Below are positions 5,861-56,764 of a DNA stretch of 64,000 bases, piece after piece; position 1 is the stretch's first letter, and every line of letters starts with the position of its first letter. The translations under genes and the position numbers were made by a program. The notes under the pieces were generated by a model. That model searched no databases. It saw only the letters and a program-made list of their open reading frames with translations, and had not been told where the DNA came from. The DNA is taken from NCBI GenBank assembly GCA_046760445.1, contig JBHIEE010000001.1, positions 19,497 through 83,496 of the forward strand. The letters are read 5' to 3'. Origin of the DNA: Candidatus Aminicenantia bacterium (GTDB lineage: Bacteria > Acidobacteriota > Aminicenantia > JdFR-78).

Positions 5861-5912
5861 GCCTTCGCCCTGAGGCTCAGGCCGAAGGGAAGCTTGAAGC
5901 AGGAGGCAAGAA
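5861..5912. repeat. GC-rich mini-palindrome (5861-5889) followed by a gaagc stutter (5889-5912)
   Basis: gccttcgccctgaggctcaggccgaaggg is a near-perfect palindrome. gaagcttgaagcaggaggcaagaa matches the reverse strand of 53166-53189 at 22/24. Confidence 0.7.
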
Positions 5913-10487: not shown

Positions 10488-10738
10488 TTTTTTCTCCTAA
10501 AGAGGATTTAGATGTTGTCAAATTTAACCACAGAGGCCACCTGCTTTAATAAATCCCAAATACCAAGCCCCGTAGTCCCGAGTACTCGGGATGTACGGGG
10601 CAAGCACCAAATACCAAACAATATCCAATAACCTAATACCAAACGTAAACTTTGTCTGTGAAGTGTAAAGTGTAAGGTGTCATTTGTCACTTTACTCCTT
10701 ACTCTTTACGATTTACAGTTTTTGTAATTTGGAATTTT
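10488..10738. repeat. Composite intergenic repeat element made of stutter words and two hairpins
   Basis: GC-rich hairpin at 10567-10601 (gccccgta..cccgagtactcggg..tacggggc). 25-nt-arm imperfect hairpin at 10658-10709. aatacc-type stutter at 10610-10640. Shares ggtatttgggattt with 23152-23166. Confidence 0.7.
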
Positions 10739-20492: not shown

Positions 20493-20495
20493 AAA

Positions 20496-21104
20496 TTGTT
20501 AGCTCATTTTGAAATTGAATATGAATTAATAAAATTAGGTTATCGAAAGATAACCGGATTAGATGAAGTGGGGAGAGGAGCACTTTTTGGTCCAGTAGTC
20601 GCAGCAGCTGTTATTTTAAATCCCAAAAAATTAATAGAAGGAGTGAAAGATTCAAAATCGATTTCCCCCAAAAAAAGAAAAGAATTAGCCGAGATTATTT
20701 TTGGTCAAGCGATGGCTGTGGGTATTGGTTTGTCTTCAAATTTTGAAATAGATGAATACAATATTTATCGGGCAACAATGAAAGCTATGATAAGAGCAAT
20801 AGACAATTTAAATCTTGAACCAGATTTTCTATTAATTGATGGTTATCCTATTAAAAATATTCCTTATCCTCAAATGAATATAATTGGCGGAGATGAAAAA
20901 AGCATGTCAGTTGCTGCTGCTTCTATTGTGGCTAAAGTAATCAGAGACGAAATGATGAATATTTATAATCAGGTTATTCCAGGATATTTACTTGACAAGA
21001 ACAAAGGATATGGTACAAAAGAACATTTCCTTGCCTTACAGAAAAAGGGGCCCTCCTTTTTTCACCGTTTTTCATTTAATTTAAAAACCAATGGCAATAG
21101 ATAG
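20496..21104 (+). CDS. rnhB: Ribonuclease HII
   Basis: GLDEVGRGALFGPVVAAAV, DSKSISPKKR, AAASIVAKVIRD. Confidence 0.9.
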   Translation: MLAHFEIEYELIKLGYRKITGLDEVGRGALFGPVVAAAVILNPKKLIEGVKDSKSISPKKRKELAEIIFGQAMAVGIGLSSNFEIDEYNIYRATMKAMIRAIDNLNLEPDFLLIDGYPIKNIPYPQMNIIGGDEKSMSVAAASIVAKVIRDEMMNIYNQVIPGYLLDKNKGYGTKEHFLALQKKGPSFFHRFSFNLKTNGNR

Positions 21105-23156: not shown

Positions 23157-23189
23157 ATTTGGGATTTTGCCGAACGAAGTGAGGCATAT
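23157..23189 (+). repeat. 33-nt element, 31/33 identical to 55741-55773, carrying the SD of the giant regulator
   Basis: atttgggattttgccgaacgaagtgaggcatat. Its GAGG lies 10 nt before the GTG start at 23195. Confidence 0.7.
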
Positions 23190-23194
23190 TTAAG

Positions 23195-26100
23195 GTGTCT
23201 TTTCTCCCTCGCACTCAATATGAATTACTCCAGAAAATTGATGAATGTAAAGTCTCCTCTCTCTATCAGGCTTATGATTATTTACACAATCAAGAACTGT
23301 TGATTAAAATATTTCCTCCTGGTTCTCATATCTCTTGGAAGTGTTTAACCAAATTTCCTTTTTTGCTTCATCCTAATATTCTTCCCATAACTGATACAGG
23401 TTACCTGTTTAAAAATAAATTTTTCACAGCCAGTCCAAAAATTGAAGGATTACCCCTTTCTTCCTCTCTTTCTCAAGCCAAAGAGGATTTTATTTCCATA
23501 GCTTTTCAATTAGCTAATGCCCTTTCTTTTTTGCATCAGCAAGAAATTATCCATCGGGATATTTCTCTCAATAATATTATCTTGACCCCAGAAGGAAGGA
23601 TATATCTCGCTGATTTAGATTTTTGTTGGTCTATTTCTTCCCGTCAATCTAAGAGAATAGTAGTTGGAACTTTTCCCTATCTTAAGCCAGAAATAATTCA
23701 AAGGAAGGAATATTATACTTATCAATCAGACCTTTATGCTTTGGGTATTGTTTTATTAGAATCATACTTAGGGGAGAAATTTGTTCAAAAGACCCCTGAT
23801 TTTCGGATTAACCAGGAGATTGATTTAGTTGAAGAGACAGGAATTCAAAGGCTAATTGAAAAACTTCTCGGAATGGAAAGGAAAAAATATGAAAAAGGAA
23901 AGGATTTTTTATTAGATTTGTTAATCTATATTCAGAAGAATAAAATTTCACTCGAAAAAATTCCTCTAGAGTATTTAATTGGATTTACCTTTCTGGAAGA
24001 GAGGAGAGAAGAAAAGATACTTAAAGGAATATTAGCTCAAGTAGAAGATTCCCATTCCCGGATAGCAGTATTAATTGGTGAAAAGGAATGTGGAAAAACT
24101 TCCCTTCTTAATAATTTTTGGTTAAGGAATAAATCTTCATCTTCTCTAGGTGTATTTTTGAAAGGAGAGAAATTTTTTAGCTTTCTTAACTCATTAAGCC
24201 AACAGTTAAAATTTTTAATCTCTGAGGAAAACCTTTTTTCGATTAATGATTTTTTTCGGCTTAGAGAGAATCAAAACTTAGATTCATTGACTTTTTCTCA
24301 ATCAGCTAAATTTTCTTTTTTTGAAGAGATGCTCTCCTGTTTAAAGCAGATTATTGCTAAAACCAAATGCTCAAGTTTTATCTTCATTGTCGATGATATT
24401 GATCAGAGCGATTCTTTGCTTAAAGAATGCTTAGACTATTTGACTAAAAATTCCCAGAAACTTCCCATTTTGTATATTTTTTCCGTATCTAATCAGAACT
24501 CATTTCTCAGTTCTGATTTTTCTGAGATTAGAATTAAACAATTATCCTTGGAACAATATGAAAGAACAGTTTATTTCCCTTTTTCTACTAAGAAGGGTTT
24601 TTTTAAATATTTATACTTAAAAAGTTCGGGTCATCCCTTTTATTTTGTGGAAATATTGAGAGAATTTTTAAAAACGAAAGAAAAATGCTTGGATTTTTTG
24701 CTTTCAGAGGAACAAAGCTATGACTTTTCTTTTGTTAAGTCTCCTGTGATTAGAGACTTATATCAAAAGAAAGTATCTCGACTTAACCCCATTGAAAAAG
24801 AACTATTAGAATTTTGTTCATTTTTTCCTGATAAATTTGAGATTGACCAAATTTCCTATCAAAAGCCATATCCTAATATTCAAAAATCTTTATCTCGGTT
24901 AGTCGAATTTGGTTTTATAAAAAGAGTAGATGAGGATAAGTATTGTTTTCTTCAGCCTTGGAAGGATTTGATTTATAGTCAGATTTCCAAAGAGAAACGA
25001 AAGGAAATTCATGCTAATTTAGCCCATCAGGCAGTAAAAGAAGGATTATCTAAATCAACCATAGCTTTTCACTTCCTTCACAGTCAGGATTGCTCGAAAG
25101 GAATAAAATTTGCCTTAGAAGCAGCCATAGAAGGAAAGGAGAAGTTAATACATGAGGATGGATTGAATATTTTAGAGCAATATCTTACGGTGGTTGACTC
25201 AATCCAAGACAATTGTCTTAAATCAAAATATTTTTTTCTTAAGGGCGAGTTAAACTTGTTAGCGGGCAATTTTTACAAGTCTCAGGAGGACTTGGAGAAA
25301 GCTCTTCAGTTTTCTATTCCAGGGGAGATTGAACAAGGAGAGATTAGACTGAACTTAGCTCGAGCCCTCTATGGTAGTCAGAAGTATGAGTTGGCTCTAA
25401 AAGTGCTAATGGAAAATAAAAATTATTTAGATGAATTAACTTTTTCTTCCGAAATAGAATCCCTTCGTATCAAAAATAACTATTTATTAGCTAAAAATTT
25501 ATGGTTGACTGGGCAAACCCAAAAAGCAATTAATGAATTACAAAATTCATATCATCAGGCTTTAAATTTTGATGAACTTTTGGCTGCAAAAGGAAGACTT
25601 GACCTGGGGTATTTTTTAATAATGAGAGGAGAAAAAGAAGAAGCGGAAAAGCATTTGAACGAATGTCTGAAAATTTTCGAGCAATATGAAAAAATAGATG
25701 AAACTGGCTTTTGCCAGCTGTACTTGGCTTATTTAGAGAGAGAAAAACGTCACTGGAAAGAGTCACTTATTCTTTTGGAAAAAGCTCATAAAAGTTTCTC
25801 TATGGCACGGGATTTATTTTCATTGGCTAAGGTGAGCTCGGATCTCGGCCGGCATTATCTCACCATGGAAAACTGGGAAGAGGCGAAGAATTGGTTTGAG
25901 AAAAGCGAAGAATTATTTTCACAAATCAACAATCCCCGAGGGATTACTCTAGCAAAGTTTAACTTAGGAGAAGTGGCGTTACATGAAGGTGAATGGCACC
26001 AGGCAGAGGAGATTTTTAGAGAAAGTTTAAATTTAGATAGAAAATCAGGCAATCAATGGTCAGTAGCGTATGATTTGAATAGTCTCGGTTATTTATATTA

Positions 26101-38620: not shown

Positions 38621-39040
38621 TTTTTTCTCCTTTAAGTTTATAGAGTATTGTCAAGCTTAATCACAGAAGTCTCCTATTATATTAAATCACAAATATATCA
38701 ATGCTTCGCATGCTACAGGGCAAGCAAATTCTAATGACCCCTTCGGCCCGAGCTCAGAACGAGGGCAAATGACCAAAACGATTATCATGATTTCTCTATT
38801 ATAGAAGAGAAATTTTTCCTTAATTCTAAAAAGTTACTTTTTTTAGCAAACTGATAAGTTCGCTCTTCTAAGTCGTAATTACTTGTTTTTTTGTTTCGGT
38901 CATTGGGATTTTGGTCATTGGAACTTATTTGCTTCGCACCGAGGCTCAGTACGAGGTGTAATTTGTGATTTGGAATTTGGAATTTTTTATCATTTGTGTT
39001 CTCTGTGGTTTCTTTCATAATGTTTTACACCTCTTGCTTT
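38621..39040. repeat. 420-bp composite intergenic repeat region
   Basis: Contains mini-palindromes at 38738-38765 and 38931-38958, a 46-nt repeat at 38886-38931 (44/46 to 50449-50494), tttggaa stutters at 38966-38986, and ctctgtggtt at 39003-39012. Confidence 0.7.
38785..38880 (-). pseudogene. Truncated four-helix-bundle (23S rRNA IVS protein / Avd-like family) N-terminal fragment
   Basis: The translation NYDLEERTYQFAKKSNFLELRKNF... resembles the YDLEERT..FAK......K.LPK start of four-helix-bundle proteins, but stops after 31 codons. The upstream part of the track ORF (to 39018) is only translated stutter repeat. Confidence 0.45.
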
Positions 39041-50207: not shown

Positions 50208-50289
50208 TATTAGACCTCTCTCTTTAATATTGAATTTTTTAAGTTTAAAAACTTAATACTAGCAAGGTTTTTAAAGGCTATTTTTTGAC

Positions 50290-50510
50290 TTCACCTCTCT
50301 ATAAAAATTAAAAATCAAATATCAAAAATCAAAATGACAAATTAAAACTCAAAACTAATACTAATACTAATAGTTCTGCGGTGCTGCCGTTCTGCAGAAC
50401 TAATGTAAAAGACATTTTTGCATTTTGATTTATTCCAAGATTATTTGCTTTTTTTGTTTGAGTCATTGGGATTTTGGTCATTGGAACTTATTTGTAATTT
50501 GGGGTTTTTA
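50290..50510. repeat. Composite intergenic repeat region with a TIR-bounded ~106-nt unit (50326-50431) and a 46-nt repeat (50449-50494)
   Basis: aaatcaaaatg at 50326-50336 is inverted at 50421-50431. Central 9-bp-stem hairpin at 50371-50402. 50322-50341 is identical to 53032-53051. Confidence 0.7.
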
Positions 50511-55740: not shown

Positions 55741-55773
55741 ATTTGGGATTTTGCCGCACGAAGTGAGGTATAT
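55741..55773 (+). repeat. Second copy of the 33-nt element (31/33 to 23157-23189)
   Basis: atttgggattttgccgcacgaagtgaggtatat. Lies between the orphan gene stop (55688) and the stop of the convergent GTPase gene (55775). Confidence 0.7.
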
Positions 55774-55774
55774 C

Positions 55775-56764
55775 TTATATGTGTAATTCGATAATATCTT
55801 CTTCCTGAAGGATGTAGTCTTTAGTCACTTTTTGCCCATCATATTTGTTCGAGCCCCAGATACGAGCATATTTCAGCTTATAGGCAAAATCTTTATGAAT
55901 TCTTTCTGCCATATCCATTACAGTGGCTCCTTTTTTAAAAATAAACGGTTCATTCAAATCAGGTTTTTTGCCTGGAATTTTACTGTACACACGAATGATA
56001 TCCAGTATGTTATAAATTCGATCTTTTAAATTATCCAAATTAACTTTTTCTTTGGCTGAGATAGAAATCACTGGAAATTTTTGTGCATAGAATTCCTTAA
56101 GGAACTCAAGATTTTCTGTTGCTCCGGACAGATCATTTTTATTTCCAATAATTAGAGCTCTTTTTAAAAAAGGTTTTTTCTCAGACTCTATTACCATTTT
56201 TGGTTCAACAAGAGTTATTTTTTTATCTTCCAATCTCTTGAAAATTACTTCTATCTGGTCTAAGCAATTATCGTCATTTAAATCAACAACTAATAAGACA
56301 GCATCAGCTACTTTAATTATTTCTGGAAGCCAGGGTTCAAGATATTCTTCCGTAATAGGAGGGGTATCAATTAACTGAATCTGAATATTTTTATAAGGCA
56401 TCATACCAGGAACAGGTTTTTGAGTAGTAAAAGGATAATCAGCCACTTCAGCCGGAGCATTAGTTAAACTGTTCAAGATCTGAGATTTTCCAGCATTTGG
56501 AGGACCAATTAATATCACTTGACCGGCGCCAAGCTTTTCAATATAAAAAACTGGTCCATGCCTTGCAGTAGCTTGCTTTTTTTGAAGTTGATCCTTAAGT
56601 TTGGAAATTTTAGTTTTAAGAAGAGCCTGGAGTTTTTCTGTTCCCTTATGTTTTGGGACAATAGAAAGCATTTCCTCAAGGATTCCAATTTTATCAGGGA
56701 TGTTTTTAGCTGTTTTTAATTTTCTTTCTGCTTCAAAATATTGAGGTGGTAAGTTAGCTGGCAT
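55775..56764 (-). CDS. Obg-superfamily GTPase of DRG/Rbg type with a C-terminal TGS domain
   Basis: G1 GPPNAGKSQ, G3 DTPP, G4 NKND. N-terminal helical region like DRG (KHKGTEKLQALLKTKISKLKDQL). TGS-like C-terminus. Confidence 0.75.
   Translation of the reverse strand: MPANLPPQYFEAERKLKTAKNIPDKIGILEEMLSIVPKHKGTEKLQALLKTKISKLKDQLQKKQATARHGPVFYIEKLGAGQVILIGPPNAGKSQILNSLTNAPAEVADYPFTTQKPVPGMMPYKNIQIQLIDTPPITEEYLEPWLPEIIKVADAVLLVVDLNDDNCLDQIEVIFKRLEDKKITLVEPKMVIESEKKPFLKRALIIGNKNDLSGATENLEFLKEFYAQKFPVISISAKEKVNLDNLKDRIYNILDIIRVYSKIPGKKPDLNEPFIFKKGATVMDMAERIHKDFAYKLKYARIWGSNKYDGQKVTKDYILQEEDIIELHI

Follow-up and report, generated by a model that had tools for sequence, protein, structure and literature searches.

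A 27-nt GC-rich insert in an intergenic hairpin of an Aminicenantia genome belongs to a dispersed repeat family and is probably a very small non-autonomous mobile element

We analyzed a 64,000-nt stretch of contig JBHIEE010000001.1 from a Candidatus Aminicenantia bacterium (hereafter the window), in which two intergenic repeats, one near 38.9 kb and one near 50.4 kb, are nearly identical apart from 27 nt that interrupt the former. Both sites lie between minus-strand genes, those for M24 and M29 peptidases at 38.9 kb and scpB and hisC at 50.4 kb, and both loci fold into similar hairpins made of degenerate heptamers. We refer to the small GC-rich repeat family to which the 27 nt are assigned as X, and to the AT-rich hairpins as host elements. 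The features on which the comparison depends are these:

38720-38988, no strand: host element 1, between the genes for the M24 and M29 peptidases; an inverted repeat, long and imperfect, composed of degenerate heptamers (CCAAATN and NATTTGG types)
38740-38765, plus strand: second copy of X, 24-nt-core form (CCTTCGGCCCGAGCTCAGAACGAGGG); 25.6 bits, E 1.2e-5
38886-38931, plus strand: interrupted host repeat, the 46 nt left of the insertion; part of the 3' arm of the AT-rich, heptamer-periodic hairpin element
38932-38958, plus strand: the 27-nt insert, a divergent copy of X; nhmmer family profile 11.2 bits, E 0.41
38930-38958, plus strand: the 29-nt unit that the conserved pairing would require, read off the sequence with the scheme taken from family covariation
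38959-38965, plus strand: TAATTTG, where the host repeat resumes, followed by the heptamers TGATTTG and GAATTTG
50300-50509, no strand: host element 2, like host element 1, between scpB and hisC
50449-50501, plus strand: uninterrupted (empty-site) host repeat, 46 nt plus TAATTTG
5862-5888, plus strand: third copy of X, 25-nt-core form (CCTTCGCCCTGAGGCTCAGGCCGAAGG); 27.8 bits, intergenic, within NNNGAAG heptamers

A repeat search of the window reproduced the observation made in the preliminary description of this DNA: positions 38886-38931 and 50449-50494 are identical at 44 of 46 positions (96%), both continue with TAATTTG (38959-38965 and 50495-50501), and the insert, CTTCGCACCGAGGCTCAGTACGAGGTG, is confined to the 38.9-kb copy and is unique in the window even when three mismatches are allowed. 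A 32-nt core of the match, TCATTGGGATTTTGGTCATTGGAACTTATTTG, has two exact copies in the window, with none expected from 100 shuffles. Because the insert is both preceded by TG and ends in TG, the placement of its ends is ambiguous by up to 2 nt (38930-38956 through 38932-38958). Its proposed membership in a family of mini-palindromes was borne out by the relatives at 38740-38765 and 5862-5888, the former sitting in the 5' arm of the very hairpin element that holds the insert in its 3' arm, so that host element 1 has a copy of X in each arm. The 5' arm of host element 2 holds a 30-nt GC-rich palindrome (50372-50401) that is unrelated to X.

We looked for further copies of the 46-mer and found its 21-nt core, TTGGTCATTGGAACTTATTTG, exact in eight contigs of metagenome-assembled genomes (MAGs; loci L004-L011 of our collection) assigned to several phyla; their labels are Phycisphaeraceae, Omnitrophica, Flavobacteriales, Bacteroidota, Saccharibacteria, Nitrospiria, Syntrophaceae, and one unclassified bacterium. 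In all MAG loci except L006, the core makes up the G/T-rich arm of a hairpin, long and imperfect, that consists of degenerate heptamers (CCAAATN/NATTTGG types), and these hairpins are intergenic and stand in either orientation relative to the flanking genes. The Saccharibacteria copy (L008) has 31 identical bases in common with the window. The host core had no match in viral contigs, nor the host repeat family in Rfam; the hairpin family could be either a mobile element or a conserved binding site. When the ten host-core copies were aligned with MAFFT, a single 27-column gap opened, at the 38.9-kb junction, and only the 38.9-kb copy has material between TTATTTG and the next heptamer. Since the 50.4-kb copy and the eight MAG loci are uninterrupted there, the empty state is ancestral, and the 27 nt are an insertion, not a deletion from the other copy. 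The preliminary description had allowed for insertion or excision; the nine empty copies resolve the polarity toward insertion and away from excision, with the 50.4-kb copy representing the ancestral, uninterrupted state.

To describe the family, we derived a pattern from the three window copies and scanned it against Joint Genome Institute (JGI) metagenomes, where it was found in at least 120 contigs ranging from 33 to 73% GC. The dominant form has a 24-nt core and the consensus (G/A)CCTTCG-N-CCCGAGCTCAGG-Y-CGAGGG; a second form has a 25-nt core (e.g., GGCTTCGTCCTGAGGCTCAGCCCGAAGG), which is the length of both the window insert and the 5.8-kb copy. Each insertion lengthens its host by a net 26-27 nt. 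As the pattern fixes 19 positions, the information lies in the free positions alone. In 87 copies of the 24-nt-core form, the positions that the pattern leaves free are still nearly invariant, and conservation collapses outside the 27-nt unit. Copies are mostly single units, with occasional direct tandems (L119, L130), and their orientation relative to flanking genes is unbiased (five in the same direction, six opposite). The hosts are described by this range of base composition and, by name, for one contig (L052, Patescibacteria-like). We found two pattern matches in viral contigs, which look like chance occurrences inside GC-rich coding DNA, and none in the PLSDB plasmid collection. Rfam 15 at gathering thresholds returned nothing relevant for the window and 24 X loci, and by E-value, gave only chance-level small nucleolar RNA (snoRNA) matches for window positions 38650-39040; a full-text literature search for X sequence strings returned no match. 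From sequence comparison, then, X is a discrete, very small, GC-rich, non-coding repeat family of which the 27 nt in the window represent one copy, and it recurs, in either orientation, across many uncultured bacteria unrelated to one another, at numerous sites that are likewise unrelated.

The idea that a discrete unit had inserted into another repeat, which was central to the preliminary description, was supported by comparisons well away from the window. The indels do not form a continuum. In at least five independent pairs of filled and empty sites, at places unrelated to one another, the difference is 26-27 nt each time, and the unit is present at more than 100 independent sites. One recurrent host was a MITE-like element of ∼170 nt (MITE, miniature inverted-repeat transposable element), which has two X sites. 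Site 1 is empty in L132 and L069 and filled by 26 or 27 nt in many contigs, with X in both orientations at the same point. At site 2, L069 has exactly CCTTCGACCCGAGCTCAGGCCGAGGGT between cttg and gcgcc, and L074, L020, and others are empty; this is an exact 27-nt insertion with zero junction identity and no duplication. The MITE-like element itself (L020, L032, L069, L074, L091, L113, L132, L133, and others) has ends like TCAACCCTTCGAC...GCCGAATGGGTCAA, two distinct hot spots of X insertion, and further nested small insertions in L080 and L090. In a second host, which bears the 25-nt-core form, filled L044 and empty L043 differ by 27 nt. Cutting out exactly 27 nt also restored the 7-nt phase of unrelated heptamer arrays at six loci (GTCGAAA in L052, GCAGATA in L084, GCGCAAA in L024, NNNAAAT in L046, GAGTCGA in L062, and GGATGAA in L093), as it did for the window copy at 38932. 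We had considered that X always lies in heptamer arrays and rejected this; period-7 enrichment is modest, and many copies lie in palindrome centers, in the MITE-like host, or in open reading frames (ORFs).

X was also found within itself and within genes. A 24-nt-core copy occupies the center of a 25-nt-core copy in L037. In two contigs, X lies in frame in the linker between the HhH and BRCT domains of ligA, in different reading frames (L024, 2949-2975; L052, 1758-1784), and for L052, which homologue names place as a Patescibacteria/Uhrbacteria-like contig, an 84%-identical homologue and 10 others lack exactly the nine residues SRPSSRAQV. Further in-frame copies are present in an Eco57I-like methyltransferase (L120, ∼2744), a beta-propeller protein (L119, 5847 and 7783), and ispH (L130, 1158-1208), each copy adding nine residues. 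X inserts seamlessly, as a discrete unit and in either orientation, into hairpin-prone DNA, and it is always the same unit, whether nested in other repeats, in itself, or in frame in genes. Among the unusual arrangements we noted were X centered in X in L037 (minus strand, ∼2241), a direct tandem of X at L119 2877-2928, and, at L130 1158-1208, a tandem of a GAATCCA heptamer plus X that runs off the contig end. In L119, X is moreover accompanied by a larger nested repeat that encodes PSTGPSSSSGGASGHR twice.

The shared TG of the window copy had raised the possibility of a 2-nt target duplication. As a property of the family, this did not hold. Among 48 nonredundant contexts, identity across the junction was 0 nt in 19, 1 nt in 21, and 2 nt in 8; that is, 29 of the 48 have 1 or 2 nt of identity, compared with 18.4 expected. 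In view of this 0-2-nt spread and of site 2 of the MITE-like host, a filled/empty pair with none, we rejected a strict 2-nt duplication, and X lacks any regular target-site duplication. In the window copy, both TG dinucleotides instead take part in the conserved pairing described below.

We number the 24-nt-core form from C1 to G26, with flanking bases 0 and 27. In 52 nonredundant contexts, position 7 covaries with 27 (T/G 16, G/C 14, A/T 7, T/A 5; mutual information 0.90), and position 0 with 20 (G/C 39, A/T 6; mutual information 0.60), and neither value was exceeded in any of 300 permutations. Positions 10 and 24 are C-G in 98 copies, T-A in 44, T-G in 7, and C-A in 1. The partners in the pairs 7-27 and 0-20 are not those of a simple palindrome; rather, these pairs extend two perfect 4-bp helices offset by 7 nt, one joining 0-3 with 17-20 (helix I, aCCT/AGGa') and the other 7-10 with 24-27 (helix II, bCCC/GGGb'). 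The conserved "defects" of the palindrome are explained by this scheme because T3 pairs with A17 and C10 with G24. For the 24-nt core, the interleaved scheme left 95.9% of alignment cells paired (shuffles 87.5 ± 0.9; reached by 0 of 500) with a covariation score of 0.236 (shuffles 0.088), compared with 80.1% for the simple palindrome, which was no better than shuffles in pairing and below them in covariation. For the 25-nt core, whose alignment included the window insert, the interleaved scheme gave 90.5% (shuffles 70.4 ± 2.1) and 0.485 (shuffles 0.180), and the simple palindrome gave 71.2%, worse than all 500 shuffles. The covariation of the family therefore fits two interleaved 4-bp helices and not a simple hairpin.

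The three window copies could each be set against this scheme. In the insert, helix I is formed by TGCT (38930-38933) with AGTA (38948-38951) and helix II by CACC (38937-38940) with GGTG (38955-38958), leaving TCG, GAGGCTC, and CGA unpaired; helix II bears a compensatory double change relative to the consensus, C8 to A and G26 to T, and both helices are kept. In the 38740-38765 copy, helix II is intact, and AA at positions 19-20 accounts for the decay of helix I. In the 5.8-kb copy, both helices are perfect once the flanking bases 5861 and 5889 are counted. As simple hairpins, the consensus and the window insert were about as stable as their shuffles (z 0.16 and 0.59), and 5861-5889 was the only copy, of those folded, to form a stable hairpin. 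The label "mini-palindrome" was therefore partly apt: it describes the near-palindromic sequence, and the nested hairpin of the window insert is no stabler than shuffles.

X encodes nothing, and a trans-acting enzyme must therefore move it. We consider it likely that X is mobile but non-autonomous, a very small element that is moved in trans and probably travels as a folded single strand. Recognition of such a fold is the most likely option because the covariation is unlike that of a simple hairpin and the outer pair of helix I uses a host base. The folded strand would be recognized by an enzyme acting in trans, the outermost pair of helix I would form with the host base directly 5' of the insertion, and an internal base would read this flanking base by pairing with it (position 20 with host base 0). 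Insertion would then be seamless, into DNA that is single-stranded or prone to form hairpins, for example heptamer arrays, the centers of palindromes, and hairpin arms. We propose only tentatively, and with more doubt than confidence, that a folded single-stranded intermediate whose insertion point is read by the 0-20 pair would follow the logic of the IS200/IS605 insertion sequences within a 27-nt unit. It is possible, though on the whole unlikely, that X is the prototype of a cross-phylum class of ∼27-nt mobile units with a pseudoknot-topology fold, guide-like flank pairing, and an enzyme common to many uncultured bacteria. Were that so, a mutation in the guide would shift target preference, the window example being TA at positions 19-20 with host TG adjoining; heptamer arrays and hairpin arms would be preferred landing pads, and the 9-codon length would permit survival in genes.

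Several points weigh against mobility of X as a folded single strand. We found no mobilizing enzyme, and no gene family recurs beside X at the 120 loci among the matches listed. The window has just three copies in 64 kb, and its insert matches the family profile weakly (11.2 bits, E 0.41). The best homologues of the window organism are ∼60% identical, which rules out an orthologous empty-site comparison. The family was gathered with a pattern that fixes 19 positions, its sequences are interrelated, which inflates the shuffle tests, and the 25-nt-core set mixes both orientations of a near-palindrome. The 4-bp helices are individually weak, and a pseudoknot is beyond thermodynamic evaluation. 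Period-7 enrichment around X is modest overall (0.356 vs 0.313), and the lack of orientation bias gives no support to a strand-specific mechanism. Finally, similar covariation could come from inverted half-sites recognized by a dimeric protein, with no folding of the strand.

The search for an enzyme covered the window and the X loci. The 64-kb window has housekeeping genes only, with no transposase, REP-associated tyrosine transposase (RAYT; REP, repetitive extragenic palindrome), or reverse transcriptase. The top gene clusters near X are ABC ATPases and response regulators, without enrichment, and no Y1 enzyme was found near X in the loci scanned. Among 5200 ORFs from all X loci, a RAYT search returned a single RAYT-like match (L120; E 1e-5 vs Escherichia coli RayT), and this gene is flanked not by X but by different palindromes of its own (GCAGACAAGAGTGTCTGC). 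The RAYT-like coding segment (L120 1500-2210, minus strand) lies within an Eco57I-like methyltransferase ORF, between the FPEVF and NPPY motifs and with the frame unbroken, and is also flanked by 15-nt tandem repeats.

These results bear on the alternatives to a folded element moved in trans. X could be an ordinary REP mobilized by a RAYT encoded elsewhere in each genome, which its REP-like size, GC-rich near-palindromic character, and non-coding, intergenic position in the window would suit, as would the RAYT-like gene on the X-bearing contig L120. Against this, that sole candidate has its own, different palindromes, and X lacks the conserved 5' GTAG/GTGG tetranucleotide (the logo of 87 copies has (G/A)C upstream and nothing conserved farther), its copies are single and not inverted REPIN doublets, many are in frame inside ORFs, and the covariation contradicts a simple REP hairpin. 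REPs are usually species-specific, and one 26-nt X sequence recurs across very different genomes. We therefore regard this explanation as improbable. We give similarly little credence to spread through RNA or a free oligonucleotide, that is, a structured transcript that is reverse-transcribed, or a small DNA resembling multicopy single-stranded DNA (msDNA), captured at breaks in heptamer arrays by end joining. The over-representation of 1-2-nt junction identity (29/48 vs 18.4 expected) is as in microhomology-mediated joining, the asymmetry of the 7-27 pair (T/G vs A/C, 16 to 1) fits a single strand that tolerates G.U or G.T wobble, and X lands in slippage- and break-prone heptamer arrays and hairpins. 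Against it, no reverse transcriptase is present in the window or recurs near X, the insertions have a discrete length of 26-27 nt and none of six filled/empty pairs shows a truncated or extended copy, which argues against imprecise repair, and microhomology is entirely lacking for the insertion at site 2 of the MITE-like host.

It is more doubtful still that X is primarily a functional motif, such as the site of a conserved dimeric protein or a small structured RNA, kept by selection, with filled and empty states arising by recombination between repeats. Strong conservation of the sequence across 33-73% GC would be expected of such a motif, and the covariation could equally be that of inverted half-sites read by a dimer, but X stands in both orientations at one host site, in different reading frames of ligA in two organisms, within X itself, and within unrelated ORFs, and it has neither an orientation bias relative to genes nor an Rfam family match. 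The flanks at different X sites are unrelated, so that homologous recombination cannot account for placement. That no mobile element is involved, and that the window difference is a local indel by slippage or a 27-nt deletion from the 50.4-kb copy, we judge extremely improbable. The TG...TG junction identity would permit a 27-nt deletion between 2-nt direct repeats, but 9 of 9 other host-core copies, 8 of them in MAGs of other lineages, are without the 27 nt, the unit is known at more than 100 unrelated sites, and slippage of AT-rich heptamers cannot yield a GC-rich 27-mer. The host-core alignment, the more than 100 sites, and the filled/empty pairs effectively refute a local indel.

We compared X with known small repeats. 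The closest in size are the small dispersed repeats (SDRs), of which SDR1-8 of Nostoc punctiforme and relatives were reportedly described by Elhai and colleagues in 2008 (Genome Res 18:1484; cited in PMC3116915 and PMC5861425). We know of no description of interleaved two-helix covariation for SDRs. According to PMC5861425, SDRs are 21-27 nt, nested, and mobile, and are reported only in Nostocaceae. SDRs and X alike are dispersed non-coding sequences of 21-27 nt, without a transposase of their own, whose mobility is inferred from filled and empty sites and from nesting; X differs in occurring in non-cyanobacterial hosts (the window organism, FCB-like by its homologues, and the Patescibacteria-like contig L052) and on contigs of 33-73% GC, the comparison being one of description. 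With REPs and REPINs, X has in common that it is short, GC-rich, imperfectly palindromic, and non-autonomous. REPs are regarded as single-stranded substrates of an HUH enzyme, and REP/REPIN elements with their RAYT transposases are the subject of work by Nunvar in 2010, Bertels and Rainey in 2011 (PMC3116915), and Ton-Hoang in 2012. X has no GTAG-type tetranucleotide, no doublets, and no RAYT linked to it in the window or the loci scanned, is often intragenic, and is shared across phyla; set against the stable stem-loop of ∼20-40 nt by which REPs are defined, it fits in size (26-27 nt) and fails in folding.

The resemblance to IS200/IS605 elements lies in seamless insertion without target duplication and in a flanking base complementary to an internal base. 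For IS608, TnpA reportedly reads the cleavage or target site through an internal guide sequence (work attributed to Barabas in 2008 and Guynet in 2009). Members of that family are at least 0.6 kb, encode or depend on a Y1 HUH TnpA, show strand bias relative to replication, and have two separate subterminal hairpins and a 4-5-nt target, whereas X has 27 nt, of whose flanks only 1-2 bases covary; it is too small for family membership, and a protein reading is possible. MITEs have terminal inverted repeats, a fixed-length target-site duplication, and a size of 50-500 bp, and X, with its 27 nt and 0-2 nt of junction identity, departs from the last two. Rickettsia palindromic elements, which Ogata and colleagues are said to have reported in 2000, are like X palindromic selfish DNA tolerated in frame in protein genes, but they are ∼100-150 bp and restricted to Rickettsia, and X is 27 nt (nine codons) and widespread. 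The GC clusters of yeast mitochondria are, like X, GC-rich mini-palindromes of tens of nucleotides, mutually nested in AT-rich DNA; unlike X, they are eukaryotic and organellar, have target duplications, and differ in sequence. Our best reading by analogy is that X resembles the Nostoc SDRs and REPs yet may be regarded as distinct, with an unusual structural signature.

Other features of the window were noted along the way. The GC content of the window is 33%, and heptamer arrays are unusually abundant in its intergenic DNA. At 10568-10600, a different GC-rich palindrome of 33 nt (CCCCGTAGTCCCGAGTACTCGGGATGTACGGGG) lies within a CCAAAT-type array and looks like another mini-insertion family. 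In the 5' arm of the 50.4-kb element, the palindrome at 50372-50401 (AGTTCTGCGGTGCTGCCGTTCTGCAGAACT) splits an ACTAAT array. A 42-nt repeat pair (23157-23198 and 55741-55782; 86% identity), in which ATTTGGGATTTT flanks a GC-rich core, GCCGAACGAAGTGAGGC, may represent yet another family of small elements. Flanking proteins of the window were found in one run only, SRR29324583, whose Logan contigs end at or near 38729-38982 and 50208-50474 (approximate positions); as these ends fall at repeat-rich intergenic regions, the repeats break assemblies. The protein database contains no close relative of the organism; the best homologues of the M24 peptidase, ∼60% identical, bear names such as KSB1, Calditrichaeota, Ignavibacteriae, and Bacteroidota. 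The RNase HII ORF at 20712-21104 matches Pfam profile positions 73-197 of 199, and the N-terminal part is absent from the called ORF, possibly owing to an alternative start or to disruption in the 20493-20711 gap.

To our knowledge, mobile DNA of less than ∼30 nt has been convincingly argued for only in the case of the Nostoc SDRs and, indirectly, of REPs. The window adds a clean filled/empty case in an uncultured lineage other than Nostoc and ties it to a family found in many environmental genomes of very different base composition. If X is truly mobile, a widespread source of indels in intergenic hairpins, of 9-residue protein insertions (in ligA, ispH, and a methyltransferase), and of assembly breaks has been overlooked. 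The covariation provides a concrete, testable prediction of what the mobilizing enzyme would recognize, and the link between flanking and internal base hints that target choice may be re-programmable, as in IS608. Should X prove to be the prototype of a cross-phylum class, it would be among the smallest transposable units known.

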